From the NCBI GenBank assembly GCA_008632985.1, contig QPGO01000143.1, positions 124,001 to 188,000 on the forward strand: DNA of 64,000 nt, given 5' to 3'. The position numbers and the translations under genes are program-made. The notes beneath the pieces are model-generated. The model ran no database searches. It had not been told where the DNA came from and saw only the letters and a list, made by a program, of their open reading frames with translations. Origin of the DNA: Psammoneis japonica. Its lineage: Eukaryota. Shown in pieces: positions 5,950 through 46,957 of this stretch (the stretch's first letter is position 1; every line of letters starts with the position of its first letter).

Positions 5950-6960
5950 AGTGATGCGAGTAAGGGTGGTTGTCGCGCACAAGTTTCGTCTTCTGCGCTG
6001 CTCACGAAATTTGAACAGCGCTGTGGCCAGCGCACAGGTGGCAGGTTTTCATTGTCTTGTCGGCTTGATGGCGTCAATGTTGTCTCAAGACAGGTGGCAA
6101 ATGTTCAGTCTTGACAGGTGGAGTCTGACTGAGTTGTGTTCCCTCAGTGTCTGTGAGGAGGGGACAACAGACCCAGGCCATCCTCTCCCACTGGGAACAC
6201 CGTGCTGGATGGGGAGAGCTGATCTCTGTGGGGTGCAGTGGAGCGAGATCTCCCAAGGCAATGATGTGTGTTGCCCACACTGTTGTGATGCTCATCCTTA
6301 CATTGACATGACTGAATGCTCCCAAGTGTGGTTTTTGCCACTTGTTGGCTGGTTTCGACAATTTTTTGTGAAGCATCGTCTTGGCTTCTTTGCCAAACAG
6401 CTGCACGACGATTTGCAACGAAAGGAGCAAAATGACGGTGTTGCTCAAGACAGGGCTTGAGATGCTTGCATTTTTCTCATGTTTGTGGTCTGCCAGGACT
6501 TGTGCCGGCATCAGGAACACTGACATCTGACACCATGTCTGGCCTTCCATCCCAAAATCTCAGCAGCATGGGCCAGAAGATCTCCGTGGTCACCTTCCTT
6601 GGACTTGTTGGAGTTTGTGTTGCCTGGGGAACTGTTGGAGTTGCTTGTGCTTCCCAAGATGCAACCAATGGGGTTGATGAGAGGTTTGTCACATGTGCAA
6701 GAAGGCTTGCAAGCATCTCCAATTAGGTTGCCTGGGCCACCACACACTTCATCATGCCGTGAGATGACTGGGCCACCCTTTTTGCACTGAAGGGCGTTGT
6801 CAATGGAGAATTTGCAGCCGCATCCATCGCAGCACTCGTGGAGGTCCAGTGGAGTGCAGCCACACGGCAAAAAGAGCGTGTCACGGAACTCTTGGCATGA
6901 GAGTTCTGTGCCATTCATTGTCAATGGCTGGCTGCAGCACTTGCTGCTTCAGACAGAAAT
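5950..6960 (-). mobile_element. Degenerate 3' fragment of an RLE-type (CRE-like) non-LTR retrotransposon, TpA-depleted
   Basis: Frameshifted ORFs give GTELSCQEFRD...CDGCGCKFSIDNALQCKKGGPVISRHDEV (zinc knuckle region), GDLL...FW...DV (restriction-like endonuclease) and KEAKT...KWQKP...RMSI; very few TA dinucleotides. Confidence 0.75.
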
Positions 6961-7157
6961 GAAAAACTGTGGTTGACAAACAAAGGGGGTGGACAAAGAC
7001 AACAGGATAGATTGCACCATCAATTGCTCACATATCCCTTCATTGAGCTTGTTGGCGACAGTTTGAATTTGAGGTTGCTCGTTGATGATTCGGTTCATTA
7101 GATGCCAACGCTATGGTAAAAAGGAAACATGCAATAATAAAGATACATATGAGCTAT

Positions 7158-11173: not shown

Positions 11174-11738
11174 TACGGCGGGTGGTGGAATGACAATCTC
11201 ATGATCTTTAGAGTCTCCTCTTTGGCTGCAAGGCTTAAAATGTTAAAGTTGTTGTTGGGGTGCTTGACAGCCACGCCACGTTTGCCTCCGACACCACCGG
11301 GTCGCAACGTGCTGGAGAAGCCTCTTTTGGTACTTCTGGAGGGATTCAACTTGCCAACGTGATCTTCGCCGTATTTACCCGCTCTATAAGAACCATTGTT
11401 GAACGACATGGTGTCTATGTAAGGTTTCACAACTTGCACCAACCAAAAACCGAAACCACCTGAAACCACCTCAAACCAATCGTTCTTTCTGTTTTCTTGG
11501 TAACTTTTGGCGTCTTGTCTACCCACATTTTTTGATATGCCCTACAAATTACATAAAGACCAAATTTTAATCAATGTTAGTATTTATGAAGGACATATTT
11601 CAAACTCAATTAAGGAAGAGATCGTGTCAATTGTCGATGCGGTCATACAGATATGACTTATGAAAAATTCGAATAGGGTACCTAGTCGTAATGACCTTTC
11701 TCAGTGAAAATGACCGGCAATTATCACGGCGACCACTT

Positions 11739-11903
11739 TGCAGCAGCTCACTCGCACGCTTCTGACATATAGTATTAATTTTGGATATTAGATTAACGTA
11801 GCCGTTTGAGAGAGGCTCGCCAGCGTTCGCCAACGCTTAGGCTCCCCTCTCTTCGGTCTACTCACTTCTTAGTTTTGACATCAGTTTTCAGCTTGAGCTT
11901 GCA
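11739..11903 (+). repeat. 5' LTR
   Basis: Direct repeat of 17008-17172; 9 mismatches, no indels by manual alignment. Confidence 0.95.
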
Positions 11904-12114
11904 CTGTAATTACAGTCGATTGTAAAGAGCTGAATGAGAAACAACGATACAACTAATAGGCTTACGAAACAAGAGAAAAGAACATTGAGAGCGAAGGCAG
12001 CGAACTGGGCTTTGGAACAAAAACGGCAAAAGGAGACACGAAAACAACGCGAACAGGATTTGGCGATTCGGGTTACACAACTCGAGTCGAAGGTAGAGTG
12101 CTTGAAGCAGTTTC

Positions 12115-13341
12115 TTGGAGGACCAACTTGGCCTGATGAGCAATCGCGAGAGTCTTGAAGAACCGTGCATTTTGCATGCTGTGAAATTTGCTCATTCGGA
12201 TTTGGAACTTGCAAAATTGACTCAATCGCATGATGATGGTGGCACGCGTACAAAGAAGTGCCCTTGTTTTGATGGAACTAATGGCATTGAAGCGCTGTTG
12301 TTCGTGGAAGATCATTTTCGTAAACTGGCTGCAAAACTTGAATTCACCACAGGCGAAGAACTGTTTGACAATTTCGAGGAAGTGTTGACAGACACCGCTG
12401 AAGACAAATGGTCCAATCTCACCATGGCGATTCCGAATGCGCAAAAGACGGTGGCTCGTTTTGACCAAGAATTGGCTCGTTTTTATTTGTCGTGTTGTGA
12501 AACTGAAGCGCGTGACACGATGATTGAATGCTTGCTCTCCCTTGAAAAACCATGTGATGTTGAAGCACAGGCACACGCGGATCGAATGGAGACACCAGTG
12601 CGACACACGAACAAGTTGCCGGGAAATAATCCAGTTGTCACTCAGAACCAAAAGAAGAAGATGATCTTCGACAGCTTCCCTTTGTCGTGGCGTGAGATGC
12701 ATGCAAGAGCAGGACGCACGATTGGAAATGATGCGTTGGCGGAAATTGTGGCGTGTGTGAGCACGGAGAAATCATTTGCAGATGGGAACAAGAAGACTTC
12801 GAAGAAGCGCAAAGACGGACAGTCGAAAGGTGGCGGCTCTGCCAAGAAGAAAGGCAATCGCATTGACCCAGAATCTCAATGTCCTTTGCATGCTCACAAT
12901 CACAAATGGAAAGATTGCGTCATGAATCCCGACTCTGACAACTGCCGTCCAAGAACTGATCGCGGAGGTCGTGGATGTGGTGGCCGTGGCGGTCGAGGTG
13001 GAGGTCGTGGTTGTGGCGGAGCGCAAGGTCGTGGTTGGCAAGGCCATGGCTGTCAAGGTCGTGGTGGTGGCCGAGGAAACTGCGGTGGTCGCGGAAACTG
13101 TGACTCTGGCAGCAATGGCGGCGAGCATCATGATGATGGTGGCTCTTGCATGCAATGTCAAAACGACACCCGAACCAATGCAGATGGCGGCGGTCATGGC
13201 AATCCGGCCAGAATGGCTCCTCCCAATGATTGGTCTGCTGAAAGCCATCATCTTGATTTGATGGGAGGGCCTCGAGAGCATCGAGGTGGAACGGGAAGTT
13301 TTCGACCTGGTGGTCGCTTCTCGGGACGCGGTCGATGCTGA
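12115..13341 (+). pseudogene. gag: Gypsy gag (RGG-rich C-terminus), hypermutated
   Basis: CPLH..H.W..C knuckle-like motif, RGG repeats; only 1 Tyr in 408 aa; GRGC repeats probably from GRGY. Confidence 0.75.
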
Positions 13342-16300
13342 CCCAATGAGCTTGAAGAGCTGTCGTCCAAGTGTGTCACTCCTGATTTTTACATGTTTGA
13401 TGATTGTGCTGATTGTGTTGATGATTGTCATGTGCACGCTGCTGATTTATTTGATGATGATGATTTCGGAAATTGTGCTGTGAATGACGAAGACGATGTG
13501 GGACTTGAGTGCACTGCACCAACCCCAAAAACAAAACCAATTGAACCATTGAATGTGGTCCCCACAACCTCATTCGCGGCGCGATTCATTCAAGACAAGG
13601 AAAGCAAACGTGTGATGCGGGCATCACTTGATTCCGGTGGAACCCATTCAATGATTCATGCTCGGGTGTTGCCGGTTGGAGCGGTTCCAGCATTGGAAGA
13701 GACAGGACCGATTTGAGCGAAGTTTAGAACAATGGCAGGAGAGTTCGAATCAACTCGTTATGTTCGATTGCAGGACTTGGTGCTCCCTGAATTTGACAAG
13801 ACCAAACATGTTGATGGCATGCGTGCGCATGTGTTTGACTCACCCTGCCAATGTGACATGATCCTTGGACAGGACTTCTTGGCGAGAGCAGGTGTCACGT
13901 TGGATTTCGAACACGGAATTGTCAAGTGGCTCGGTTCAAGCATTGCAATGAAGCCGAAGAATCAGCGGACCAGCATCCAGCAATGGCTCGATGATTTAAC
14001 TGATGAGCCAGCTGATGATGATGATGTGTGGGACAGTTGCATCCTCCATGCAAAATGTGAGGAGACGTCCCCGTCTGAAGTGGCTTCAGCTCAGAAGCAT
14101 CTTGCTGCCGAACAGCAAGAGAAATTGTGTCTTGTGTTGGAGAAACACACTGCTCTTTTTGATGGCACCCTTGGCAAGCACACTGGCAAAAAAGTTCACC
14201 TTGATGTTGATCCTAACGCCGTTCCGCACCATTCTCGAGCGTGTGCAGTGCCGCACAATGATCTCGAGACTTTTGAGCAAGAATTGGATCACTCAGTGGC
14301 TCTTGGTGTTCTTGAAGAAGCCGGAACTTCGGAATGGGCTGCAGGTGCCTTTGTTCGACCAAAGAAAGATGGACGAGTGCGGTGGCTCAGTGATTTTCGG
14401 GAACTCAACAAAGCCCTCAAGCGCAAGGTTTGTCCCTTGAAGATCATTCAAGATGTGTTACAAAAGAGAGCCGGGTGCAAATTTCTTACAAAGTTGGATC
14501 TCTCAATGATGCACCACACGTTTGAACTGGACGACAATTCCAAAGATCTGACGACAATCGTGACACCCTTTGGAAAGTGTCGACACTGCCGTCCAGCAAT
14601 GGGTTTGAAGCCGGCTCCGGACATTGCGCAATGCTTGATTGAGAAAACTGCACATGACTTGGACGTTGACGCGTGCATTGATGATCTCGCTCAATTTGAT
14701 GACAATTTTGATGTTCACCTTGCTCATCTCGACAAACTCCTGCAACATTTGGAAGAAGCTGGATTTAAAGTGAATCCTTTGAAATGTGAATGGTGTGTGC
14801 AGGAAACGGATTTCCTTGGGCATTGGCTGGCTCCGACTGGAATTCGTCCATGGAAGAAGAAAGTGGAAGCCATTCTGCGAATGCAACCTCCGGAAAATGT
14901 CAAGCAGCTTCGCTCGTTTCTTGGTGCTGTGACATGCTGTCGCAACATGTGGCCTCGGCGTTCTCACTTGTTGAAACCCTTGACAGATCTCACAGGCAAA
15001 GGCTCGTGGACGTGGACAGCAAATTGTCAGGCGGCATTCAAAGAGATGAAAGCAGCACTGGCGGCCGAGACGTTGATGGCGCATCCGAATCACAACAAAC
15101 CCTTCCACATCTGTGCCGATGCCAGTGATTGCCAAATGGGCACAGTGATTGTACAAGACGGAAAACCCATTGCATGCTGGTCTCGAAAGCTGAACGCGGC
15201 GCAACAAAACTGCTCGACAATCGAAAAAGAACTCTTGGCTGTTGTCATGTGCTTCCGCGAATTCCGAACGATGCTCCTTGGCGGCGACTTGCATGCATTC
15301 ACCGACCACAAGAACCTCACCTTTCGCACCTTGAATTCACAACGTGCACTCCGTTGGTGCCTCTTTCTGGAAGACTTTGCCCCTCAATTCCATCACATCG
15401 AAGGCCGCTTGAATTTCTTGGCTGATTGTTTTTCTCGTTTGCCTCGCACGGATCCTCCCTCTGAAGGGAAGAGCTTGGCTCCGGGCAAAAGAACTGTTGC
15501 TGATTTTGCTCCGCTCGATTCGAAGTTGGTGCCGAGTGAGGAACCATCCGAAGTCGAGGATTTCCACGATGAGGACTTGGAGCTCGGCGCATGCCGATTC
15601 AAGTGTTGTCGCAACATTGAAAATGAAGGCCACTCACACTTCTTCTCTTTCTTTGTTGATGAGCCGGAACTGTTCAATTCCTTTTTGAATCACCCTGCAA
15701 TGCAGGAGATGCAAAATCCAATGACGTTACAACGGATTCAAGAGCACCAGTTCGAGGACCAACAATTGAACCAGATGCGCATTGCTCACCCTGATTGTTT
15801 CCTCGTGGAACATGTGAACAATCGACTGCTTGTGTGTTGTCGCACGCGATTGAATGATCCTCCAGGACAGTGGAAAATCTGTTTGCCAACTGCGCTTGTG
15901 CCCGACATCTTACGGTGGTGTCATCTCGTCCTTGGCCATGCCGGAAGCCAGCGCATGCGTGAAACAATCCAGGCTCATTGTTGTCACCCTGGGTTGCGTC
16001 GCATGTGTGATGAACATTCTTGTGCTGATTGCCAACGTAACAAAACTTTGGGTCCTGGCTGTGGAGAGCTGCCCGAACGAGAAGCTCCATTGACCCCCTG
16101 GTCGGAAGTGGCGGTTGACCTCATTGGCCCATGGAAAATCAAAGCACCGAATGGAGAGATTGAGTTTCGCGCGTTGACCTGCATTGATCCTGTCTCTAAT
16201 CTTGTTGAACTGGTGAGAATTGAGAATAAAACTGCTCGACATGTTGCCAACCAATTCGAAAACTGCTGGCTTGCACGCCACCCCAGACCGAATCGATGCA

Positions 16301-16884
16301 TCCACGACAACGGCGGCGAGTTCACCGGGTGTGAGTTTCAGATGCCATTGCAACGAGCCGGAATTGATGATGTGCCGACTGCTTCATACAACCCTCAAGC
16401 CAACGCCATTTGTGAACGAATGCACCAGACTGTCGGCAATGCACCACGCACGCTCATTGCTTCTGATCCACCTCAAAACCTTCAGGATGCAGCCAGCCTC
16501 GTGGACGATGCTTTGGCAACTGCAACGCATGCAACCCATTGTGCTGTTTCCCGTTCCTTGCAGATTTCACCAGGTGCTGTGGTGTTCGGACGTGACATGA
16601 TCTTGGATGTCCCAGTGCTGGCGGATTTGTTGACGATTCAAGGCCATCGCCAGACGCTGATCAACAACAACTTGCGACGAGCCAATGCCAAGAGAAGATC
16701 CTGCGATTGTCAAGTGGGCAATCAAGTTCTAATCAAGCACATTGAGCCATCCAGACTCGAGCCTCGTGCTCATGGTCCTCATCCCATTGTTCAAGTGCAT
16801 GTGAATGGCACACTCTCGGTTCGTCGAGCTCCTCATGTGGTTGAGCGCCTCAACACTCGGCGCCTGATTCCTTTTCGTGGTTGA
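13342..16884 (+). pseudogene. pol: Gypsy pol (protease, RT, RNase H, integrase), one internal TGA at 13714-13716
   Basis: LDSG protease (13627-13638), RT DFRELNK and CIDD for YxDD (14674-14685), RNase H DAS...EKELLAVV...TDHKNL, integrase H..GH...C..C, VDLIGP, DNGGEF, ERMH. Confidence 0.92.
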
Positions 16885-16995
16885 TCAGGGGGTTTTCTTC
16901 CCAACACCTGGGTTTCCTCCTGTCATTGTCTTTGCTTTTGGTTTTGGTCCTTGGTTTTTGGCCCTTTGCATGATCCTCTAGTTCTTTCGGATCAT

Positions 16996-17007
16996 GGAAG
17001 GGAAGAG
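16996..17007 (+). promoter_or_regulatory. Polypurine tract
   Basis: GGAAGGGAAGAG immediately upstream of the 3' LTR. Confidence 0.9.
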
Positions 17008-17172
17008 TGCAGCAGCTCACTCGCACGCTTCTGATGTGTGGCATTGATTTTGGATGTTAGATTAACGCAGCCGTTTGAGAGAGGCTCGCCAGCGTTCGCT
17101 AACGCTTAGGCTCCCCTCTCTTCGGTCTACTCACTTCTTAGTTTTGACATCAGTTTTCAGCTTGAGCTTGCA
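17008..17172 (+). repeat. 3' LTR
   Basis: Direct repeat of 11739-11903, followed by TSD CACTT. Confidence 0.95.
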
Positions 17173-17177
17173 CACTT

Positions 17178-17385
17178 TGGGGGAAGTCTCCAGCCAGCTG
17201 CTGGCTGAAGAATCTTATGTAGAATTTGTACTGAAAGAGTCTGTCAATCTGTGCGTTAGGGGGTTTTGGTGCACGCTGGACAGACTCGCCGTCTTTTGCG
17301 TACATAATAATTGTACTGGCAAAACCCCCAAACGCACTGACGAGCAGACTTTCTTCAGCCAGCAGCTGGCTGGAGACGTCCCCCA
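17178..17385. mobile_element. MITE, ~35-bp TIR (TGGGGGA.GTCTCCAGCCAGCTGCTGGCTGAAGAA), 4-bp TSD ACTT
   Basis: TIRs at 17178-17212 and 17351-17385 with 1 mismatch; ACTT at 17174-17177 and 17386-17389; second copy at 57281-61443. Confidence 0.9.
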
Positions 17386-18171
17386 ACTTTTTATCGCTCA
17401 CGTTTGGGTTTTTTAGGTCGTCTTGCACAATGACAGCGCAATTCGCTTGTTGTTCCAACGCTAGCACGATATTTTGAAAAACATATTGAACAAGGGAGAG
17501 ACAAAAACACAACATGTTTCAAAGAAAATCATGCTAGAGTTTGGTCCTCACATCAGTCGCATAATTTTTGCGTTGTCACTCACGTTGACACCACAAACCA
17601 AAAAGAAGATCCTTGTGCATTACAGTAGCAAGCAAGTGCTGTTCCTTTTCTCAAGTCAAGAGCGTTTTCTGAATCTCTTGCAATAAACTTGCAAAGTAAT
17701 TTGGTTTAATGTCGAGTGACTAAAAAGAGGCAAATATCCTTATTGACTGCTTTTTTTGCCACTTTTTGCTCAAAAAAGGCGCACCGGTATAGCTATTTGT
17801 CCACAGACCAGACTTCTACCCACTCCCATCTCTCTCAAACTCACTACAAAGAGCACTGCAAAGGAAAAACGGCAATTATCGCCTTTGATTCCAAGGCAAA
17901 TGCTAATCAAAATAATGCTCGCATTCTACTTTATAGAGCTGCAGCTGTGCTCACTCGGTAGCACCCACACTCTCTAGCAGAGGGGATAGCCTGACAACGG
18001 AACCGCGCTGCATGCATTGATTACGGATTGCATGCACATGAATATAACTAGCGAGTCTCCTCCTCCTACTAATGCTCCTAGCTAAGATCATAAGTAACGT
18101 ACACTAGTAGTGAGGACAACAATCATCATGTTCCTTTCATAAAAAGAATTTTCTTTACTACTACTAAACTT

Positions 18172-24088: not shown

Positions 24089-24689
24089 TGTAGATATTGA
24101 TAGGAAAGGTTGATGGGTGATTGAAGCAACAGATTATGAGAGATGACAAGTACGTTCGTTGCGTTCACGATATTTTTGATGGGCGAGGAAAAACCCGCGA
24201 AAAGTGTCGATGACGTAGCAAGCGGCGAAAGATATTAACGGACACGGTGACGTATTTTGACATTTCAACTATATTCAATCATTAGGCACAATAAAAGAAT
24301 GCTTATATTCACATTTTTATAATATGATTGAAACACTCTTAGGTGACATCAGAGAAGATCGTCCAATCAGATTCCTTCAACAAAGTTGATGGATGCGAAG
24401 GATTTGACACAAAGAATGTAGTACAAAATCTCAGTGAAATTCTACACAAAGATTCTCTCGCTGAAAAATACGGACACAATGACGTCAACGGTACGTTCGC
24501 TACCACGAAACCACGTGTTATTAATTACTTCGTAACTGCATCTATTTAATGATTTTCTACACGTGGAGCGTCAAAACTCAGAAATGCAACGTCAGTGTCT
24601 CCGCAAAGAAGACACGTTGACGTCACCAATCTTGAGCACGAACGAAATGAACCCGTGTGGCATTAGAGTGTTCTTACTGACCCCGTGCG

Positions 24690-27600
24690 GGTCATGGGTC
24701 TCGGGTTCTGATCCTTTCGTCTTTCAACACTTGACTCAACCATGATTTGCCTGCCTGGTGCCGCAGCCGATCCACTCAAGCAGTGTGGGAGCATGGCTTT
24801 GATGCTTTGATGCGATGATGGGGCCGTGGGGTTCTCGTGTCATCTGCCAAGGTGAGAAACAACTTGGTGTCCAAGGCTTTTTTGCCATGAATGTTGCCAC
24901 AAATTGCCACACTTGTGGCTCACTAACAGAAACATGAGGGGTTGGTGGTCTCTCAACATGCGAGAGGAGCATTTCTTGTGCCAAGGAGAGAAAACAAGAG
25001 CAGCTTTTTCAGCCAGAGATGTGCCCCGGATGTGCGCTCCGCTCAATCAGCTGTTCAATGTTGATCAGAAAAATGGGTGTTTGTTGGATCCAGAGGAGTG
25101 AGTTGGCATTGCCGACATTTGGCTTGGCATTGCTCTCAGCTGCACATGCATTTTTTGAGCCACACCCACACAGTGCAGCTCAGATTTTGGCAGACTCAAG
25201 TGTTCTCATCTGTCAGCAACATGACACATGAGGAAAATCATTGCCCTGCTGACTTTTCTCCAATGTGCTTCCAATGAGTTGATGATTGCTCTGACAACAG
25301 TGCCAAATGAGCAACTTGATTCAACAATGTGGAGGAGCTCTGTTGGCATCACATGTTTTGTTTGAGCCCACCCGACACAGCTCTTGTTGTGCCATGCTTT
25401 GAAGGACATCATTGTCAGTTTGCTGGCAAGGAGTTGTTTTTGTTTTCTTTGACCAAGGCTGCACCACTTGGACTTGACAACACACCACCTGTGTTGGCAA
25501 ATGACTGCTCTGGGAAAGCTGGGACTCAACTCGTTGGTCGCGTGGATGCCAGTGGCTTTTGGCGCATCTTGCTGACACAGACATGCTCCTGTCATTGGAT
25601 GAGAAGCTCTTCACAGAGGTGGGTTGATGGTTTTCCACTGTTCACCAGAGCAACAGAGTGCAAAGCTGAAGCAGTGGGTTGACCCAGACACTGGCCAAAA
25701 GTGCGCAGCATCCCATGGGGCCGGGCGCTTGTCATCAAATGGTTTTGGAAGTGTGAGCTTGAGTTTGGCTTCACCTGGGACATTCACAGCAGCCCTTTCC
25801 TCCTTCCCAGCCATCACTGCTGATCTGGGCTCTTTGTTTTTTTTTACAAAACCTTGCTGCTCCTTCCACATGGCCAGCACAGTGATCTCGAAAGGGTCGC
25901 TGTCTCTGTCCTTGTTCCTTCTGTGAACAGTGCACTCAGCCAACATCTCCACAGCAACCCAGCATTTTTTTAAGGTGCTGCAATGCACAAACTCACCAGT
26001 TGATTTGAGACAGCCATGAGCAGGGCCATCAGGCCCATCACAGAACTCATGTGGAGCTGGCTTTCAGACTGACTTGCTTGACAGTCATGTGTCCATTGAA
26101 ATGTGCTTGAAGCGCCAACTTGCTTTCCACATTTGTGCAACAAACAGCAGGTTGCACAACAAGCTCTCATTCTTGACCTGCAGCAGGTTTGGAATCCTTG
26201 GCTTTTTGGTGACTTCCTTCTGCTTGTTGATGAGGTCAACTTTTTCATCCTCTGTGAGATCAATGTTGACATTCACAACTTCCATGAGAGCCAAGAATCT
26301 TCTCCATTGAGAGCCACAATAAATGGGAACAGCCTGGATGCAGAAAAACAATGATGTGGTGGGCCAAGCTTTGTGATCCATTTGCACACCAGAACCACCA
26401 GATCTGGACCCCTTCTTCAACTCACCCAATGCCCAGCACACAAACTCATGATGCTGTGGGCATCCACTGGACATGATGATGTGGTGCATGGATGCTGTGA
26501 CTTGATTGTGATGCTCATCGTGATGATGAGCTGATGTGATTTTTGTTGCCATGGCACAGCACAACCACATTTCACTTCTTTTCACAGAGCTCTGATTCCA
26601 CCTGAAAGTGTTGAATTTGCACGAGAGGCAGGGAGTCAATCTTCTTGCAGCCTCAATTGTTTGTGATTCACCCCTGAACCTGCAAGACAGTGCTTGATCT
26701 GCAGGTTTGCATGACTTCCCACAGATTGGGTGACATCAGGTGACACTGAAAAATTCTCATGGTGATGCGCAGTGATGTCCAATTTCAGGAAACCTGGAAA
26801 AAATGAGCCTGCACCGGGTCAGAAAGAACAATCTGTTGTGTCTGAGGAAAGGAAGAAGTCTGCAAAAAAAAAAGCAAAAGCAAAGAAAATTAAATGTGGT
26901 TTGTTGGCAGAAGTCTGCTCCACTGGTGAAAATGATGCATGGTTGTGAGATGTGAGGTTGTCCAAGATGCAATTTGAGAACTGCCACTCTCCTCAGTGCC
27001 AGGGCCCCAGTCAGAGTTCAAACACACAGTGGCACACACCTTTTGAGGGGCCTGCAGAGTTGAAAAATTGAACACAAACACCATTTTGAGTGCATGTTCA
27101 TGAGCCTCCTTTCTTCCCCACTCTTTTCACTGTGGTGCCAACAGAGCAGTGGTCTTTTCGACACCAGTGGTTTGACATGACCATGGCTGCTACAGCTGCT
27201 CAGCATTCATTGTCCATGCATTTTTGTTGAGCTGCTTTTGCTGCACTGCTTCAAACAGAAGTCACTTCTGCCTTTTGTGTGGCAAACACAAATGTTTTGG
27301 AATTTTGATTTTGCTCAGGTTTTTGTGTGGGGAATGTGTGTGAGTGAGCAGGTGTGTGCTGCAGACTCTGCTTTAAAAGGTGCAGCAGGCAGTCCAGCAA
27401 GCTGTGATCTTGTGACATTTCATCAACTTGGTTTGTCACAAATGAGCAACATTGTTGGCTCAAGTGAACACCATGATGACACATTTGGGGGCACACTGGG
27501 GAGTGCAACATGCCTCCATGAACCCCCGTTGCTGGGAGCTGATTGCCCAAGCTCCGCGGGCAGCCTCTGTGTGTGATGAACATTTTTGTTGGCTCTCAGC

Positions 27601-29500
27601 CACAATCAACAAGCACAAAATGTGCCTGGCCAGAGCACATTCTGCACATGCACACTTTTTGTTCTTTTCACAATCAACTGCATCACAAAACTTGCAACTT
27701 TGGCATGGCACAAGCTTGCCACAAAAAATCTGTTGTTGTTGACTGCCAAAGACCTTGCACTTTGATCATCAACCAGGCCCTGGAGAGCAAAAAAGGAAAA
27801 CAATGCAGCTGTGCACTCTCATCTCTGAGTCCACTTCAGAGATGTTGCACCTCCGCCCAGCAGCAATGCCAGCAACAGGCTGACCCACACTTTCATGGCA
27901 CTGGCAGCATGGCAAAAAAGCAATCCCCAGGGGCTGGCCTTTTGCACTCCAGTGCTGCCACGTGGTGCCTGCCCAATTGACTTTTTGCAACAATGTGGTG
28001 GGGGTGCCCCACAGTTGAAGCTCTTTCATTTTTAATGCCAGACTTGTGAACCCAGGAGCAATCAGCGTGGATCTCAAACACCCTCCTTGGCAGTTTCCAG
28101 CCATTTTGTCCACACATCTGGACATTTGTTAAAACAGCCGTCAAAAGCACAGCACAAGCTGGAGCCAATTTGTCTTGATGTGGCCCCAGACCCAGCACTC
28201 AAGCTTTTGTTGAGGCACCAGATTGGCTCTGAATTCCAAGCTGAGTGACAGGGATGATCAAACACAACAAACCTTGTTGATTTGAAAAAGAGTGACTCCA
28301 GTGCTGGCAAGAGTCTTGCTGTCATCTCTCTTTTCCTCAGCAGTCACATTTTTGGCTCTTGAAGCAGGGTCAACAACTGCAGAGTTGTTTTTGCCAGAGT
28401 CTTCTTGCTGTTGCAAATGCAAGTGATGCCACAGCAGCCACTCTCCAGCCCATGAGCTGGAGACAACAAAACAGCAGAAAGACACACACACCAAATGACT
28501 TTCCAAATGCTGGACCAGCACAATCTACCAAAAGCACTCTGCTGACAGTGGCCAGGTGTCCAACCAAAAGCACCTTTTGAAAAAATGATGGATCCATTGC
28601 TTGCTGAGTGATGCAGCTGGGTGCAAAAGATTTCTGCCATTTGTTGCACACTGGATGTCATGAAAAAGAGTCAGATTGTCAAATGGGATGGCTTTTGACA
28701 TTGTGAGAGAGCTTGAAGTTTGGTTTCAAAGCAGGCCCACCTCCCCATGTCATTGCACCCAAACAGCCCAACAGAAAGAATGGCCATTTGCCAGCATCAT
28801 TTCAATTGCCTGCATCTCCCACATGCCATCCGGAGCAAGCTCCAAAGACAAAAAATGCATTTGCCAAGCACAGCCACTCACCCCCTGGGCACACCTCCAC
28901 CAGTTGACCCAAACAGAAAGCAACCCTCCTTCTTTGCCAGCACTGGAGGCATTCAACATCAATGGACAACTTTTGAGACAGAGAAAAAACATCCATGTCC
29001 ACCACAGGTGCATGCTGAGAGCTCCAAAGCCACCAACCTCCCCACTGGTGACCTGCTGAAAAAAGTTGCCTCCAAAATGTGGCCACCCCAACAATGCACA
29101 AATGACGGGCACAGAGCTGCCAACTTCATGTCAAAAATGTGACAGTTTGGTGCACTGCACTGTTCTTGTTCCATCTCGTGCAAGAGTCAACAATGCTGAC
29201 TCTGTGTGGCACAACTGATGCACTTGTCAGTTTTCAATTGATTGGATGTGAATCCTTTGCTGGGGCAATCAACCACAGTCAATTTAAGCCTGTCCTGGTG
29301 AAATGATCACACAAGCTGCAAGGAGGTCAGCCTGTGTTTGGTGCTGCTGCAATGCCTCAAACAATGCAAAGAAAATGGAATGATGTGAATGGAGTCTGAA
29401 CGACCTAAATGATCCTTGTGTGGCCACGGTGTCTTGGATGTTGAAGTAAATGGCATGAAACAGCTTTGTCTGGCCACTGCATTGGTGATGTTGGGAAAGC
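24690..29500. repeat. Degenerate TpA- and CpG-depleted tract (unclassified old repeat or TE)
   Basis: Almost no TA and few CG over ~4.8 kb; dense short overlapping Cys/His-rich ORFs; no recognisable intact domain or termini. Confidence 0.7.
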
Positions 29501-35436: not shown

Positions 35437-36718
35437 GCCGTTTCCACTAGTTGATGTGATGCGTCTCTAATTTAAGAAGAAGAAAAAAACAGCATGAATG
35501 TGAGGTCACATTATGCACGATCGATGAGAACACCGTGATACACCCGTGATCAAAAACATGCGGGTGCAATTTCGAAACATGGGGACTTGTTCCCCCTTTT
35601 ATACGCTCCATGTCTGTGGCAAGGCACAGTAAAAACACACACAAGTCGACACCTTGTCGCGTACATACCATGGTTGTTGCCGCCATGCTGACCCCAAACC
35701 CATCAAAGAGATGCGCAATCTGCCCCTTTTTCTGTTTTCGTTTCAGAATTCAAGAATGCCGCTTGCATGATTGAAAATATCCATAGTTTTATTCAATGTT
35801 GAATATTTTTTATTTCATGTTATAATAATGAATCGAATAAGTTGAACATTCAAATGAAACATACATGTTTATATAGAAAAAACGAAAAATGTTGTTTCCC
35901 GCCAAATTTTTTTGGCATGAAACCAAAACGCGGCGCCTCGGCCGAAGTTAGTTTTTGACACGAGGAGGAGTTTCAACACACCGCTTGTTGCTGTGTGCTC
36001 TGCTTCAACATGTCTCTTGTGTCATTGTCACATGTCTTGTGGAAATGCCACAAAGGAATTGCACAGATTGAGCCAGGCTGCAAAACAAAAGTTGGGCGTT
36101 GTGTGAAGAAGACAGCCTGGCTGATGAAGCACAAGAGATGCGAGCAAAGACACAGCAAGAAAGTCAGAGACAAAGGGATCAAGCCCTTGTGCCAAGCCCT
36201 TGCATGCTTTTGAAAAATGACAAAACTCAATTTCCATGGGAACATGGAGAGTCTTGGTCTGAAGGGCAGGCAGCATTTGGTTTGATGAGAGCGCTGACAT
36301 GTTGCCTGCTCTCCTGCTCTCTGCTGTCCAACAAGAGCATTGACCTTGTCTTGTGTGTGTGTGTCTCCAGCACTTGAGCAACACAAGACAAAGTCAGAGA
36401 GAGGGCGCCAATTTTCTGTGTCAAACAATTGTGCTGCTTTTTGTCAGCTGCGCCACATTTTTTTCTTTGCAAGATTGCTGTGGGCCCCAAAGGCATCAAG
36501 GTTTTGTGCAGAGAATTGTGAGAGCAAGCCCAGAGGCATCAGAGAAAAAACTCATCTTCTCTTTCTCATGTCTGACTCTGTCAGAAATTAAGGTGCAGAG
36601 AGCAGTGCTGGAGGGCCGCTGCACACAACTCAACCAACTGGTTTGTTTTGACCCAAGTTGCCACCCTCTGCCAGAGCTGAGGGGAAGCCAAGCTCTGGGC
36701 ACTGCTGAGTCTTGAAAA

Positions 36719-36740
36719 CACACACACACACACACACACA
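36719..36740. repeat. (CA)11 microsatellite
   Basis: Directly visible. Confidence 0.9.
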
Positions 36741-39700
36741 CCTGTCACCAAGCAACACCTTTGATTTTGTGCATGTTGGGAGCAAGAAAACAGCACACAC
36801 CCTCCTGTTCTTGGAAAGATGCTTGTGAGAGAAATGAAACAAAACACACTCCGGCAAGCAACTCTGGCTGGCAACTCTTTTTTTCTTTTTTCAAGGCTCT
36901 GTGGGTGGAGAGTTTGAAAAACTGCTGGTGGCATTGGATGTTGCCACCTCACTTTTGTGGCACACAATGGAAGACAAAATGCTGGGAGTGACTTTCCTCC
37001 TGGAAAATCAAAGGGAATTTTCCTGCTGCAAACTTTGTTGCTTTTGCAGACTCAGTTTCTGGGGGTGTTCTTCTTGTGCATGTTGTGTCTTTGCTGCAGC
37101 AAGAAAAAAGCAGGCAAGTGGTGCCAGAGATGACAGTCAGAATCAGCTCTGCAAATTGTTGTGTCGGTCATCTTTCTGCCACTGCGCCATTGCAAACATC
37201 TTCATGAGGCAGCCCCTTTCTTGACAGACAGCTGCTTGAAGACCGGCTGTCTCTTGAGATTGAGTTGCCATCAATGGTGGTCAACGTCATGCAGGGAAGA
37301 CATGGGCCAACAAGCTGGCAGCAGAGTCTGGTGCCTTCATGTCTTCCACCAATTTTTGCTTGCAGCTTTCATCTCAACTGGCAAGATGTTGCCATGACAC
37401 CAATGGGCCACTCAGGATTTGGCGTTCCATGGGACACTGCAACTCTTTGCCAACCAAACATGACAAACTCTTGATTGGAGTCTGAATGCTCAGGAAACAA
37501 AAAGCCATGGATGGCCAACCTGCAATCTTCATTGTTCAACTCATCCCTGACTTCAGGACCACACCATGTGAAACAAGCCTGGACTCCTTTGGAGGAGTGC
37601 ACCACTGAACTTCAGAAAAACTGTCATTTGCTGGCACTGCCCAACTTTCCACAAAGAATTTCTGCAAACCAACATGCCATCCATCAACTGATCCTTTTAG
37701 TCTGCTTTCTTCAAACACTCTGCAGACTTGAGAAACAGTGTCATCAATGGACCACTTTGTGACATCATTGTGAAAATCATTGCGCGATGGTTGCTCATGC
37801 ATCCTCATCATCCTCTTCTGCCATCAAATCCTTGAGCTTTGCCACAGTCTCTGCAATTTGTTGCCACATCATGGAAGTGCAGGGAGTTGCAACATCAACA
37901 ATCACAAGTTGTTGCATCTTGGAGGTTCCAAAGGAGCTCCTCAAGCTGCTGGTGAATGCATCAGCACCACTTTGCTTGTGCACCTGCATTCACTGTGCAG
38001 CAGAGGTTGATGAACAGCAACCACCCAGACTGCAAGACACACATCCACCTGCAGTGAATTGTGCCAAGAACAAGGCACTGCAACACACAATGGGGACAAT
38101 CATTGTGAAAAAATCGGAGTCACCGACAAGCAACTCCAAGAAGCCTTCCTGGAGAACTGTGCAAATGACGAGGCCCAAGACAACTGGTGCTGAGAGCACT
38201 TTCTTGAAGATTTCAATGGCTGCCATTTCAGGGATCTCATGCCAGATTTTTTCTCTTGGGATCTGTTCTCCCAACACACCAGCGATGTGCTCATGCAGGT
38301 TGCAGTGATGATTTGTGTGGCACTGCTGCTGCCACCATCACCTTTTGCCTGTGTGTTCACAGGGCAGCTTTTCTGTGCAACACCAAATGTGGGACAGTTT
38401 GCTTTTGATCAACCAACTCAGCAGCATCTGTGATTGTCTTTTTTTTCAGAGCCACAAAGACATGCACACAGCGCAGATTGTTGTGCATTCAGCCACCCAG
38501 CTCATTGGCAAAGGCACAGCCCAAAACATTTGCACCAGCCACAAGGCTTTTTCTGGTCTCACTTCTTTCTTTTGCATCCGCCACAGCCAAGAGGCCACGT
38601 GTGCCTGACCTGTTGGCAGTGGTTCAGGCTGCACCAGCCCCGGTCACCCCATCTTTTGATGGTGTGCAGGCGCCAACTGGAGTTTCTGTTGTTTTTGGCA
38701 CTGCAGCAGCTCTGCATTGTCTGTGGACATGCAGGGGCAATGCAGTCAGGTCAGGTGGTGATGATGTCATTCAGCTGTCATTGATCATGGGGTTGACCAA
38801 TGCTGGGGCATGTTCTGGATTCACGGGCAAAGGAGGGGGCAAAGGCTCGGTGCCAAACGCCAAGGTGGTGGCCCACACTGTTTGAAAGATTTCTTCATTT
38901 TCCATGGTGATCTGTGATGCAATGTCAAAGAGCACCACTTTTGACTGCTGAAACTCTTGACTTGTTGCACGGCACTGTTGTTCTGCCAAAACACTTTGTT
39001 CCACCTCAATTGCTGGCCGGAGCTGGCAGGACTGCAAATTCAGATTCTTGGCCCAGACCTGCAGTGCATCGCTGGTGTGAGCCAGTGATGTGCTGCAGCC
39101 ACTGCCACCAATCATGGCAACAATGATGGAAGGTGCACTTGAACAAATGGTGACAAGAACAGGGAGGAACAAGAAAAGACTTCTCACTCCAGCAGCAGAG
39201 AACAGTGCCTTGCAGGCTTCCATCAAAGCAGCGACCTTGTTGATGCCGCTGCTGTTGTGGAACTCCTTGCTAGAATTGCTGATGCAGCGGCTGGTGATGC
39301 TGTGGTTGAGGCTGCTGCTGTTGATGCTGACGATGATCACCACGGCACTGTTGTTGCTGCTGCCAAGAAGAACCTCAACGAGGAGGTGCAGAGTCTTGTT
39401 GTTGGTGGCACCCTTCACCTCCTCCTCCTCCTCCTGAGGGTCGTCCATGATGACCACAATGACCACCACCAGATTGCTGTTGCTGATGCTGACCACGATC
39501 TCCTCTTCCACTGCACCGTTGTTCTTGAGGATGACGCTGAGGAGGAGGAGGAGGACGATGATCTTGCCGCTGCTGGTGTTGACAACAATGATCGTCGTCA
39601 CGTTGGTGCGGTTGTTGTTGTTGTTGTTGTTGTTCGTTTTGATGTCCTCGATCTTGATGCTGTGGTTGTGGTTGCGATGGTTGATGGTGCTCATGATCTT

Positions 39701-40676
39701 GCCAAGGAGTGGGTCCATGACAACCATCCTGGTCAATTTGATTTCCTCCTGGATGGTGTGGATCACCATCTGTTCTTCCTCCTTGGCTTTCGTCTGCTCT
39801 TCCTCCTCAGCGAGGAACGTCCTGATGAGAACCAGAAGAAGCAGCAGCACCACTTCTGGAGGAGGAAATGTCCTCGCAGCCGCTCCGGCGTGGCTTTTTG
39901 TTGTTGTGGCGATCGTCACCATCATCACCTCGCCAGCAGTCATCGTCCATTGTTTCATTTCTCGTTCACACTTTTCTCGTGTGGTTGCTTTTCACACAGT
40001 TGGTTCTTGTGTTGTTTCGCTTTTCCCCCAGGCGACAGTTTTGTTCTTTGATGCGAGAGAGAACTTGATGGACTGGCTGCGCTCTCATGGTGCGGCCGGT
40101 TGAGTGTTTCGCCTCACGGGGAGGGACCCGGAGAGGCGTCTTGCAGTCAGGTGGATGTCAACCAAGTGTTGTGCACCCATCAGGGCCTGGAATTTCAACT
40201 CGTTTTTCGGAATTTTGAAAAAATGGGACCTCGTTGGTTGGCGAAAGGAGGAGCAAACGGAGCGAGATTTTTCAAACCGGGTGGATGGGTCTGACTTTTA
40301 TGGACCAAGTGCAACACATGAAGGTGGATGAGGAAACGATGGTTTCAGGGTTCTGTCTGTGTTGCCATGCATGGAACACCGATCGTGAAGTTGAGACCAA
40401 AATTCAGAAAAAGAGCTCGCGACATGCTGCACGATTGCACAAAAGCAAAAATGTCTCCAAAATGGTTCTACAGATTTTTTTATGATTCACTCATGTTGTG
40501 CAGCTGAGTAAAAGAGATGTTTTGGAAATGAGAAAAGTGGGGGGATTCTGACTCGTTTTCGAGATAGAAGGCATTGAAGTTGTTAAAAAAAAAACAGCAC
40601 AAATGATGTCACTTCCTGAAAAAGCATTCTTTGATGAGAGCACATGTGAGGAGTTGTAAAAATTGTTCGTGAATGT

Positions 40677-41029
40677 CCCTGCTTGTGCACATGAACCACC
40701 TGGTGGTCCGTGTGCATTTTTGGGTGCACACGAACCACCTGGTGGTTCGTGTGCACCCCACGCAAAATGCTGCGTAGATTTGCACCGAATTAAATCTGAA
40801 TGCCCACATCTGCAGCAGGCTCTACGTGAAAACGCACTCGAAACAGTGTCCACCGAGCCGGCAGTCATGTGCCGGAACGTCGTGAAAAGTGTTTCGTGTC
40901 TGAGAAAGAGTTCGTCAGGGCCGGCGAACAACACCCCTCTACGATGCGACTGGTGTAAAATGCACGCAAATGCACAGGAACCAGCATGTGGTTCGTGTGC
41001 AAATTAGAGCTCGTGAAAAACAAGCAGGG
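40677..41029. mobile_element. MITE with CCCT...AGGG termini, 4-bp TSD ATGT, internal palindromes (piggyBac-like)
   Basis: TIR CCCTGCTTGT/ACAAGCAGGG; ATGT at 40673-40676 and 41030-41033; 37-bp palindrome at 40722-40758. Confidence 0.7.
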
Positions 41030-41198
41030 ATGTGGAAGTGTGATTGTGCGACGCTAAGTTCGCCAATCGTGTTTTTGAAGGGCCACACGACAGTGTTGTG
41101 ATGATCATGACCCAGTCATAGAATGGGGCCCTGCTGCAAATGTGATCACATCATGTCATGACACATGGGACATTCATGAATTGCCTTTGTTTCGATGT

Positions 41199-41484
41199 CC
41201 CTGCTCATGCACAGATGGTCTCTGTCATCTGTGCACTGTCGCCTGCACAGATGGTCTCTGGAGACCATCTGTGCAGCTGCGTTAAATTCTGCATGTTTGC
41301 ACCAGGAAAATGTACCTCCAACCTGTCCGGCAGGCATGAGTGACATTTTGTGCACGAGAAAGAGTTCGTTGGGGCAGGCGAACAACATCACTCTACGATG
41401 CGACTGGTGCAAAATCTACGTAAATGCACAGATGCACTCTGGAGCATGTCTGTGCAAATTCGAGCTCGCAAATGATGAGCAGGG
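41199..41484. mobile_element. Related MITE with CCCT...AGGG termini, TSD ATGT
   Basis: TIR CCCTGCTCAT/ATGAGCAGGG; ATGT at 41195-41198 and 41485-41488; shares ~130-bp 3' part with 40677-41029; palindrome at 41243-41276. Confidence 0.7.
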
Positions 41485-43575
41485 ATGTGGCCAATTGCAA
41501 TTTGTCATTGCGACAAAAGACAGAGCATTTCATTTGTTCTTTTCCTTTGACGAAAATGTCGCAAATCTTAGGAAGAGTTTTCTGATTGGCCAAAACACAT
41601 GAATGCAATGCCCACTGACAAAACATCACATGAGACCAACAAAACAACACTTGGGCCCCTTAAAATGACACAACACCCATCTGGCCATGTGCGTGTTGTG
41701 TTGTGCCACTGTGTTCGCACCAGCGAAAGACAAAACAATGACAGGCGACGGGATGCCTGCAGCCAATGGCACAAACATTGGAATCCTCATCACTTTGTCA
41801 GAAGCAAAGCCTGAGAGATGTCAAGATTGAAGCAGTCCTTCGGCCAGTGCATCAAAAATGCAGAACACAGAAAAAGAGTTTTGTGCTTGCACACCACAAC
41901 CATGCTTTGCAGTTTGTTCCCTTCTTGCCAGTTTGCTCTGCCACACTTTTCAGTGCCTCACCATGACTCATCTGTGTGTGGTTTTAAATTGCACAGCAGG
42001 TTCTCTGCTGCTCTGCACTGCCAGAAACTCCTTCACAAAATGCGGCCCACTTCCATGCGTGCACACTCCATGTTTGTGTGTTGCTTCAGCACCTTGTTCA
42101 AATCATCAGCTTGTCCAGTGCATGCAAAACTTTGATGACAAGAACAAGACAGAAACACAGCAATGACAAAACTCTTTTGCAGGGGAGCAGCTGGTGCATC
42201 TGGGGAGCAAAGCCAATTGGCGTGCTTTTTGCTGCCTCAGCAGGGTGCTGCCCTTGCCTGTGCAGCACTTTTTTTCTCTTCTTTTGATCCAGTGCTCCTG
42301 TTTCCTTTTTTCAAGATCATGCACATGACCCCAGTTTGAGTTGTCTCCAGTGACTTTGCTCACCCCAGCTTGCAGCACGACCCCTGCTCTCACGTGCAAA
42401 CCCAGCAGCCCCGCTGGCACAGCTGGAAATGAGCTTTCTTGTTGTTTTTCTTCATGTGCAAAAACAACTCAGCAGCAGCTTCACTTCAAGCAAGAGATCT
42501 GCTTCTGGCAACTGCCATCTGGGTTTGTCAAGTTGTGGCTGCAGCTCTTTTGAAGAGCAAGCTGATGCACCTGGGTTGCCACCTGGCGCTGCCCCTCCCG
42601 AGCTGCAGCTGCTGTCCACACACAGCACTCGCACCACAGCACAAACTGGGTGAAGGAAAATCCTTGAGAAACTGGTCATTTCATGTCAAAACTGCATCTG
42701 GAGTTTGCTCTCAACTGCTTTGATGTCAAAATTGAGCCCACTGCAAAACAAACAACCAGCTCGTCCCGGCGAGTGGACCGAGCCGGGACTTCTCTTCCGC
42801 CCCAGCAAGGCCCCCCTCTTTGCTTTTCATTTCACATTGCTTTGAGCACAAGAAGAGTCTTTGTGGCTTGACTTTGCCTTTCAACAAAGTGCAACTTGCG
42901 CGGCACTTAAACTTCCTTCCATGCAACTTGCAATTCATGACAACCATGGAGCTGTCTAAGAACGCAAATTTTTTGTTTTTCCAACAGCAAAACCTGTGTT
43001 TGCTGCAGCGGGTGCCTTGCTGCTGTGTCTTTTGTGCACCAGTGCACCATTTCTTGCCCCACCTGCTCTCTTCCCCCCCCCCCCCCCCCTTGACTTCAAG
43101 CTGCACACCACAACTCAGGTTGTGCCAAATGTCCTGGATCTCCAGGAGGCATGATGGCGCTGCAGCTGGCACTCGCCTGTTGGGCCCTTGTTCTTTCTGA
43201 TTTTGTCAACAGACAACCAGAGTGCCAACACTCAACATTTGCCACACCACAGCAACAAGCCTGTCACCTTGCTCTGCTGCCCCCCTCCTTGCCCACATTG
43301 GCCCATCACCTTTTTCCATCAATCGCCCACCTTTCCTCCTTCTGTGGCCGCCAAAGTCTGCACGCAACTTGACAAAAAGTGCGTTCAATTCTAAAGCAAA
43401 AGATCGCAGAAAACGCGGCAGCCACACACTGCATGTCACGTAGAGTCCACGTGACACGATCGATGGAAAAAATTGACAGAGCTCGAAGCAAGTGCGCAGT
43501 GCGCAACTAACTGAACGCCAACAGGCAGCAGTGCACAGCAGTGCTGGTGAACGACAGTGCGATGGATGGATGCGA

Positions 43576-43756
43576 AGAAGAAAGAGGTTGCGGACACCGT
43601 GAAGGTCTTCGTGGCAGCCTGCCTCCAGGAGCATGAAGAAAGTGTGTCAGTGTCAATGGACCGCAGCTGGAAGCTTTTGAGCCCCTTCAAGACGCCTTGT
43701 TGTGGCATGTTGCTGTGGAAGCCCCAGCGGGAGAATGTCCCACATTGCGGCACTCC
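43576..43756 (+). repeat. Partial duplicate of the Crinkler-like gene 5' region (46968-47140)
   Basis: Colinear alignment with four 2-bp insertions. Confidence 0.85.
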
Positions 43757-46700: not shown

Positions 46701-46957
46701 CGGGATTGCGATCACAAACGCGACGAACAGATGCCCACAGTTGATCGCTGATTCGATTTTGACACATGTCTGTGCTTGAATGTTGCATTGCTCGATTTTG
46801 GAGAAGTGGGAAAACCTGGGGAAAGCAAGAAACAAGAAAGAACAACAGAATGACCCAGTGAACGTTGACAAAGCAACGCCACTTGCTCCAACGCAACAGC
46901 AATCCACTTTCTTCTGCTGAACCGACAGCACCCAACCGCTCAAACGAGGATCTTAAG

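Follow-up and report, generated by a model that had tools for sequence, protein, structure and literature searches.

Transition-only loss of TA dinucleotides in a Ty3/gypsy-type retrotransposon of the diatom Psammoneis japonica, followed through its LTR pair

A 64-kb stretch of Psammoneis japonica DNA, referred to below as the window, was analysed, and all coordinates are positions within it. At 11739-17172 the window carries a complete LTR retrotransposon of Ty3/gypsy type, 5.4 kb in length, in a neighbourhood of ordinary genes, most of them without introns (among them L13e, class II aldolase, enoyl-CoA hydratase, sulfatase and Arf). The repeat search pairs 17008-17172 with 11739-11904 (166 nt, 95% identity). 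The parts of the element are listed below; good-context TA sites are those whose neighbouring bases favour loss, as described further on.

11734..11738, + strand: left copy of the target-site duplication (TSD), CACTT, read directly and repeated after the 3' LTR
11739..11903, + strand: 5' LTR, 165 bp, TG...CA, largely unedited, 11 TA
11904..11963, + strand: leader behind the 5' LTR, TA-rich (7 TA in 60 bp; good-context sites at 11948 and 11957)
11964..17068, strand not applicable: TA-free tract (26 TA between 11964 and 17057)
12106..13341, + strand: gag-like open frame, 411 aa, without a Pfam match, with an in-frame TGA at its end
13342..13716, + strand: protease region in the same frame, D-S-G motif near 13630, with a second in-frame TGA at its end
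13717..16884, + strand: pol frame, 1055 aa, RT, RNase H and integrase
16996..17007, + strand: polypurine tract, 12 purines, abutting the 3' LTR, read directly
17008..17172, + strand: 3' LTR, 165 bp, TG...CA, 6 TA
17173..17177, + strand: right copy of the TSD, CACTT

The gag, protease and pol regions share one reading frame, in which the two TGA codons act as separators. The D-S-G motif presumably belongs to a retroviral-type aspartic protease. Pfam domains follow one another in pol as RVT_1 (215-370), RT_RNaseH (433-554), Integrase_H2C2 (724-777) and rve (807-893), and this order of RT, RNase H and integrase assigns the element to the Ty3/gypsy type. Reading by eye only, no recognisable tRNA-complementary primer site was found 3' of 11903. 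The TSD, the polypurine tract and the gag-protease-pol interior support the identification of 11739-11903 and 17008-17172 as true LTRs. The element is probably a recent insertion and looks otherwise intact.

The distribution of TA along this region is strongly discontinuous. TA is dense up to 11963, sparse from 11964 to 17057, and dense again in a MITE-like element after 17216. The left edge of the tract consequently lies between 11963 and 12074 and its right edge between 17068 and 17216, where it may coincide with the end of the element at 17172; the first 225 bp or so, comprising the 5' LTR and the leader, are outside. The TA odds ratio is 0.05-0.11 per kb in the interior and 0.08 for the tract overall, against 0.57 for the non-tract background, and 82-92% of the interior TA has been lost. 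Altogether the window contains six TA-free tracts with fairly sharp edges and TA odds of 0.03-0.09, which cover about 26.6 kb of the 64 kb (about 42%) and are interspersed with normal diatom genes. The other tracts and two copies of the MITE-like repeat are as follows.

5951..7100: further TA-free tract, TA odds 0.09, CpG odds 0.42
24551..29500: further TA-free tract, TA 0.05, CpG 0.18
35901..40650 and 40951..48300: two adjoining TA-free tracts, TA 0.03 and 0.08, CpG 0.33 and 0.53
59651..63050: further TA-free tract, holding the ORF 59956-60984, TA 0.09, CpG 0.64
17177..17386: MITE-like element, 210 bp, with terminal inverted repeats of about 35 bp, outside the tract
61245..61451, - strand: second MITE-like copy, inside a TA-free tract, 1 TA

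Searches for Pfam domains, tblastn matches and terminal repeats established a transposon identity for none of these other five tracts. Their 69 ORFs gave no relevant Pfam match, the only two matches being to a His_Phos_1 host gene located at the edge of a tract; six pol homologues used as tblastn queries matched nothing in the window outside the element; and no terminal direct or inverted repeats were detected at the tract edges. The ORF 59956-60984 has 71 relatives among 1.84 billion representatives. It carries His at two of three conserved Tyr columns and keeps the conserved Ile at two of nine, with Val at five. Seventeen of its relatives were scanned for Pfam, of which 16 had no family and one was an unrelated bacterial surface protein; the MULE label attached to this ORF derives from ESM-atlas scores of 0.86-0.92 and is a lead only.

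A gap-free alignment of the two LTRs shows differences at LTR positions 28, 29, 31, 33, 35, 39, 49, 61 and 93, eight of the nine differences falling within positions 28-61. All nine are transitions, located in eight dinucleotides of the TA/TG/CA kind, with no other substitution and no indel. A preliminary description of this DNA had reported exactly these nine differences in eight dinucleotides and no other change, and every string that it quoted is present. Positions 28 and 29 form a single doublet, CA in the 5' LTR and TG in the 3' LTR. At positions 31, 33, 35, 39, 49 and 61 a TA of the 5' LTR stands against TG or CA in the 3' LTR, and at position 93 the 5' LTR has CA and the 3' LTR TA. As a result, 11 TA are found in the 5' LTR and six in the 3' LTR, and neither copy has lost any of the nine CpG. 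We simulated 200,000 sets of nine random substitutions on the LTR with a transition to transversion ratio of 2:1. The per-substitution probability of a TA<->TG/CA change was 0.166, no set contained more than seven such changes, and the probability of nine out of nine is about 1e-7, so that chance was rejected as the cause of the pattern. The repeat search found no third LTR copy in the window, and a 21-base LTR word was absent from metagenome contigs.

Taken alone, the LTR pair is unpolarised, since changes from TA to TG/CA and changes in the reverse direction equally need nine steps. The coding interior is more informative. Tyr accounts for two of the 1055 residues of the window pol (0.19%) and for 2.56-4.82% in all 120 homologues listed (43-62% identity), which are the best 120 of 532 at E<=1e-30; Cys and His are raised in the window pol relative to these homologues, matching the Tyr deficit. 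In an alignment of the window pol with its 40 best homologues, none of 23 conserved Tyr columns (Tyr in at least 70%) is kept. Fifteen have become Cys (TGY), seven His (CAY) and one Arg (CGT, a double hit), and CIDD stands in place of the catalytic YxDD box. At other conserved columns the residue is almost always retained, for Asn at 23/23 columns, Trp at 15/15, His at 13/13 and Leu at 60/66; for conserved non-Tyr columns as a whole the figure is 451/512 (0.881), the homologues ranging from 0.824 to 0.958 with a median of 90.9%. The same deficit is visible in the DNA: in five metagenomic relatives of pol the TA odds are 0.40-0.77 and the GC content 42-45%, compared with 0.08 and 50% in the window pol. 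The 4-mer balance against these five relatives (TA -35, TG +25 and CA +3 per 1000) is too noisy to reveal a strand bias at 50% protein identity. The ratio of Cys to His, 15:7, does not depart significantly from 1:1 (p=0.13), and the choice of strand shows no pattern with respect to the base before the Tyr codon.

These 23 replaced Tyr codons, together with the flank rule described below, support the earlier proposal that TA is the ancestral state; the polarity at the nine LTR sites, which is taken from the interior and from that rule, would accordingly run from TA to TG or CA. As this change cannot make stop codons, the open frames of the element do not indicate function. A selective origin, in which the element became poor in TA but stayed functional, was also considered and rejected: all 23 conserved Tyr, including that of the catalytic YxDD box, have been replaced, and the choice among Cys, His and Arg is patternless.

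The 113 TA that survive across all tracts occupy contexts that are non-random when compared with background TA. Over-represented among them are TTAA (3.8-fold), CTAA/TTAG (3.1-fold) and GTAA/TTAC (1.6-fold), and depleted are ATAC/GTAT (0.06), ATAT (0.13) and ATAG/CTAT (0.36). An A directly 5' of the TA (equivalent to a T directly 3') thus favours loss, and a T directly 5' (equivalent to an A directly 3') protects. No LTR site contributed to the derivation of this rule, and the 3' LTR obeys it: good-context TA changed there in 5/5 cases and poor-context TA in 2/8 (Fisher p=0.016). The changes in the 3' LTR can therefore be assigned to the same process as those of the interior, with the same polarity. 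Good-context TA were spared at 4/5 sites in the 5' LTR and at 0/5 in the 3' LTR. All six TA left in the 3' LTR are poor-context, and the tract may consequently cover the whole of this LTR. In the 5' LTR and leader together 6/7 good-context TA are intact, which indicates that the 5' end has really been spared.

The adjoining MITE-like element at 17177-17386 marks the right limit of editing. It has eight TA, of which six are good-context and intact, so the tract ends less than 150 bp from the end of the element. In the related copy at 61245-61451, which lies within a tract, 6/8 of the TA sites of the first copy are TG or CA. This difference between two copies of one repeat, eight TA outside a tract and one inside, argues that the loss depends on position and not on family. 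Several TG/CA doublets are also found in tract-internal repeat pairs, three of them in the 200-bp direct repeat 43565-43764/46957-47148. Independent hits on the two strands of one ancestral TA would be expected to leave such doublets, but CpG decay is another possible source.

With this polarity, the two LTRs have had very different histories. The 3' LTR has changed at seven of the nine inferred ancestral TA in its first 61 bp (five to TG, two to CA), a strand split of five A>G and two T>C, and the 5' LTR at only two of 13, positions 28 and 93, both to CA. Eight of the nine LTR sites show a change in a single copy; at site 28/29 each LTR underwent its own change, on opposite strands. Both LTRs descend from one template in reverse transcription, and RNA edits would appear in both of them and on one strand. 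Changes that are specific to one LTR and affect both strands must have been made in DNA once the LTRs existed. The view of the preliminary description that editing acted on DNA and not on RNA is thus borne out by the one-LTR changes and by the use of both strands (five A>G to two T>C in the LTR, 15 Cys to seven His in pol). Its further statement that the changes are post-insertion holds in so far as they followed LTR duplication; editing of finished double-stranded cDNA before integration, or gene conversion from an edited copy, would also fit.

The process was fast when compared with other decay. Non-TA differences between the LTRs number 0 in 165 bp (95% upper bound 1.8%), with 82-92% of the interior TA gone, and near-saturation of TA loss therefore preceded other decay, in line with the preliminary description, which had placed the near-saturation of the interior ahead of any neutral divergence of the LTRs. 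The retention of non-Tyr conserved residues in pol, at a level within the range of intact homologues, points the same way. The description of the mutations as very fast stands in this relative sense. CpG in the element is nearly untouched (odds 0.87), so that TA loss is separate from CpG decay and much faster. Since CpG odds have fallen to 0.18-0.64 in the older tracts, TA loss appears to come first and rapidly, with CpG decay later. Some of the interior edits may have been inherited from edited source copies and not acquired in place.

Variants of the family were examined in the Logan contigs of one DNA run, X1, which may be the assembly's own sample and so is not independent proof against a base-calling artefact. 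This run contains 42% of the sampled 31-mers of 11500-17400, and 2376 of its contigs aligned to the 5.9 kb, 481 of them at >=99% identity; this abundance of shared words makes it less likely that the edits arose in assembly. No RNA run containing the stretch was listed, which has no bearing on whether it is expressed. Summed depth, which is not a copy number, was 1527-3519 in 25 of 26 bins between 11697 and 17015, 110 in the remaining bin and 54 in the left flank. Transitions make up 362 of 412 variable places (A>G 99, T>C 94, C>T 91, G>A 78). Among the 40 of these 412 places that are listed, none of which falls in the LTRs, TG/CA doublets occur at 12493/4, 13336/7, 13622/3, 13971/2 and 16445/6. 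At 11949, 11964 and 12075 the window copy has TA and nearly all of the X1 depth TG, so that the limits of the tract vary between copies. At several listed sites nearly 100% of the depth is in one alternative state; this could reflect a site-determined choice of strand or the descent of much of the family from already edited copies.

Other explanations of the LTR pair deserve attention. The element might have arrived already edited, an A>G enzyme having acted before integration, in the cytoplasm or the particle, on the product of reverse transcription by an APOBEC-like logic. Retroviral minus-strand DNA shows a gradient of single-strand exposure along the genome, and the spared 5' LTR and leader, followed by an edited interior and 3' LTR, match such a gradient; moreover, the tract stays within the element, stopping at its right end or earlier, and does not spill into the MITE-like neighbour. 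We nevertheless consider this scenario unlikely. A single-strand intermediate predicts one direction of change, whereas both strands were hit, and tracts of 7-12 kb exist without any pol remnant. The MITE-like element, which needs no reverse transcription, is yet TA-poor within a tract and TA-normal outside. Another scenario is gene conversion, with an edited copy replacing the interior together with the first part of the 3' LTR, in which case the pair would be silent on timing in place. It would account for the contiguity of the changed block and draws on the many family variants in X1, some of whose states are common to nearly all the depth. However, it needs a conversion tract of about 5 kb ending inside a 165-bp LTR, and the intact TSD rules out reciprocal exchange. 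The 5' LTR also has two TA>CA changes of its own, site 28/29 having changed separately in the two LTRs, and TA editing would still be required somewhere for the other differences. For these reasons gene conversion seems to us very unlikely.

Hardly more probable, and perhaps slightly less so, is an artefact of base calling or assembly, in which heavy modification at TA (and CpG) is misread on each strand as CA or TG. One hit per TA on either strand and confinement to domains are what such misreading would give. The modified base 5hmU is reported to lie preferentially at TA and TC and to mark dinoflagellate repeats (PMC11572971), and X1, the only run found to contain the stretch, may come from the assembled sample itself. 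On the other hand, the shared 31-mers and the 481 near-identical contigs would hardly be expected, at about one edit per 30 bp, were the edits absent from X1. The doublet sites listed there are about 98-100% in one state and not a 50/50 mixture of strands, and misreading would not explain why the older tracts have no recognisable coding capacity. Two further possibilities we regard as extremely improbable. In a RIP-like C>T process TG/CA would be ancestral and the 5' LTR would have gained TA; the nine differences are equally parsimonious in this direction, and the 5' LTR is indeed TA-rich (11 TA in 165 bp). Yet the interior shows the reverse direction, with 0/23 conserved Tyr kept, C>T at CpA would make stops where the frames are open, and the LTR sites follow the interior flank rule for TA loss. 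A-to-I editing of the element RNA by an ADAR/ADAT-type enzyme, fixed by reverse transcription, has just as little to recommend it: it predicts changes shared by the two LTRs and confined to the sense strand, whereas they are LTR-specific and on both strands. The preference of A>G change for a 5' U/T does resemble that of fungal ADAT-type mRNA editing, with U at -1 (PMC11156358).

The element was thus probably altered by a chromosomal, DNA-level process that converts A:T to G:C at 5'-TA-3' in one contiguous tract made up of interior and 3' LTR, with the 5' end spared. The data establish the direction of the changes (loss of TA), their dinucleotide specificity and flank preference, the use of both strands, their occurrence after LTR duplication and their near-saturation ahead of other decay. 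Either base pair of the TA step would be hit, giving TG or CA. Second hits are rare, only one of the 23 Tyr codons having gone to CG; this pattern of one hit per TA would follow if an intact TA step were needed and the product, TG or CA, were no longer a substrate. The host would be acting on transposable element (TE) DNA in the chromosome, either as a mutagenic genome defence or because a TE-specific mark at TA carries a mutational cost. Plausible lesions include an adenine deaminated to hypoxanthine and an oxidised or otherwise modified thymine that pairs with G. As A>G after a 5' T on one strand is T>C before a 3' A on the other, the sequence cannot separate the two. The same process might have made the five other TA-free tracts, with slower CpG decay following in the older ones.

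Two identical LTRs with different fates argue against recognition by homology and favour a directional or domain-based targeting. Somatic hypermutation of antibody genes is transcription-coupled and begins some distance behind the start site. By analogy, and speculatively, coupling to transcription with an onset some distance downstream of the start site of the element would spare the 5' U3 and the leader and hit the 3' U3. We can offer only tentatively, as a possibility short of an even chance, that the agent is a natural mutator of double-stranded chromosomal DNA specific for TpA in TEs and causing A:T>G:C changes, either a DNA adenine deaminase or a thymine oxidiser of TET/JBP type, possibly guided by transcription. 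No candidate for the enzyme was found among the genes of the window.

Several known systems resemble this process in part. RIP has a CpA preference and is a premeiotic, RID/DIM-2-dependent process of fungal hosts. It acts as a genome defence through C-to-T transitions (PMC6963459). The tracts of P. japonica share with RIP in ascomycete fungi a permanent, dense and transition-only hypermutation of TEs with a dinucleotide preference, in tracts lying between normal genes, and an inactivation that outpaces ordinary decay. The chemistry is the opposite: A:T>G:C changes destroy TA and raise GC, whereas the C:G>T:A changes of RIP create TA and lower GC. In addition, no stops are created and the frames stay open, the host is a diatom and not a fungus, and, unlike what the homology targeting of RIP would give, the LTRs of one element were treated differently (two hits and seven).

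APOBEC produces only G>A on the plus strand, from C>U on the minus-strand cDNA. The heavier editing of the 3' part than of the 5' part, resembling an exposure gradient, is a point of likeness with APOBEC3, for which hypermutation of retroelement DNA, which can fossilise in the genome, has been described (PMC4866542 and PMC12548423). The changes described here, in contrast, are A>G and T>C on both strands and at TA, and a non-retro repeat is also affected.

With regard to adenine deamination, TadA base editors prefer a T before the target A, and to our knowledge ADAT/TadA is the only enzyme class with a taste for the TA dinucleotide. All the inferred changes lie at TA and fit adenine deamination with a 5' U/T preference. 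The enzymes of this class, however, edit RNA, and DNA only after laboratory evolution, and their edits are neither heritable nor targeted to TEs. In ADAT (Tad2/Tad3)-type editing of fungi, U is preferred directly 5' of the edited A (PMC11156358). A route from the thymine side to a TA-specific and TE-specific outcome is suggested by dinoflagellates, another group of SAR algae, in which 5hmU deposited by TET/JBP prefers TA and TC, is enriched on repeats and silences transposons; this is an epigenetic mark, which the accessible parts of the same source do not report as a source of T>C hypermutation (PMC11572971). Methyl-CpG deamination also yields TG and CA, in that case from the other self-complementary pyrimidine-purine step. 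It differs in that the element has lost most of its TA with its CpG nearly untouched, CpG loss being present in the older tracts.

Heritable hypermutation against TEs is known as C>T change, by RIP in fungi and by APOBEC on retroviral cDNA. A search of open-licence papers and preprints, with subscription journals outside its scope, brought up no description of transposons hypermutated from TA to TG/CA, whether in diatoms or in other organisms, and the accessible parts of two papers on diatom transposons (PMC2806351; bioRxiv 10.1101/2025.10.24.684338) do not mention dinucleotides, deamination, point mutation or hypermutation. TE-directed hypermutation of a chemistry opposite to that of RIP and APOBEC therefore appears to be undescribed in the literature covered. 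If this interpretation is correct, a TpA-specific, A:T>G:C counterpart in a major algal lineage would mean that the strategy has evolved more than once, by different chemical routes. It would mirror RIP, disabling coding capacity through every Tyr codon, as well as TATA-like promoter motifs, without creating stops, and it would be self-limiting. It would also point to a natural enzyme making A>G changes in DNA, an activity that we know so far only from laboratory-evolved TadA.

There are practical consequences for annotation. TA-free tracts keep only TGA as a stop and have six open frames, and gene callers can be expected to predict spurious proteins in them, as well as 'intact' TE genes lacking Tyr. 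Dating by LTR divergence will be wrong unless TA sites are masked. For the element described here, the LTR pair shows that the process followed LTR duplication and preceded ordinary decay. Among the coding sequences of the window, the NDUFAF7-like ORF at 55498-57189 marks the host as a diatom and, with identities of only 39-50%, shows that the database contains no close relative; the named sequences that match it best come from Fragilaria, Seminavis, Nitzschia, Cylindrotheca and Amphora.

Long open frames occur in all six reading frames of the TA-free tracts, segments almost devoid of TA dinucleotides, because TGA is the only stop codon possible there. The tracts listed below, together with their margins, are overlapped by 69 ORFs of at least 110 amino acids, and none of the ORFs of this size located inside the TA-free tracts belongs to a Pfam family. 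Mis-calling of such frames as genes is therefore likely. These tracts, and the other features considered here, are:

5951–7100, TA-free tract with long open frames
24551–29500, TA-free tract with long open frames
35901–48300, two adjoining TA-free tracts with long open frames
59651–63050, TA-free tract with long open frames
59956–60984 (+), ORF whose protein family carries no Pfam name
43565–43764 and 46957–47148, direct repeat pair, 200 bp, 3.4 kb apart, 86% identity
17177–17386, MITE-like element, 210 bp, terminal inverted repeats of about 35 bp
61245–61451 (−), second copy of the MITE-like element, inside another TA-free tract
4882–5046 and 5083–5250, tandem duplication, 82–83% identity, within ORF 3075–5675 (−)
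31033–33160, FAST kinase-like/RAP domain gene

The ORF at 59956–60984 has 71 relatives at E ≤ 0.001 among 1.84 billion representatives, the best of them sharing 47–48% identity with it. Its placement near MULE transposases (ESM atlas score 0.92) is to be taken as a lead only.

Neither copy of the direct repeat in 35901–48300 contains a single TA, and the pair has three TG/CA doublets, aligned sites that read TG in one copy and CA in the other. The repeats may represent LTRs from an older element that has been edited throughout and in which no pol can be recognised.

In the Ty3/gypsy-type retrotransposon (11739–17172), gag, protease and pol share one common frame, which is broken by in-frame TGA codons at 13339–13341 and 13714–13716. 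These codons may be read-through stops or products of mutation; a stop codon survives the change of TAA to TGA. In the pol protein P0001, no Pfam domain covers the roughly 170 residues that separate RNase H from integrase (residues ~555–723, window ~15379–15885).

The left flank of the retrotransposon (11508–11712) is present as two versions in the DNA sequencing run X1, one the same as the window (depth 22) and the other with 18 differences and two gaps over 205 bases (depth 31). This second version comes from either a diverged allele or a paralogous site. The X1 contigs of both versions end 26 bases short of the LTR. On the other side, the retrotransposon insertion point adjoins the left end of the first MITE-like element, the two copies of which are 88% identical.

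Repeats are also found within a long ORF and a gene of the window. The long ORF carrying the tandem duplication has no Pfam family, and the internal repeats of the FAST kinase-like/RAP gene (31551–32512) show 65–72% identity.
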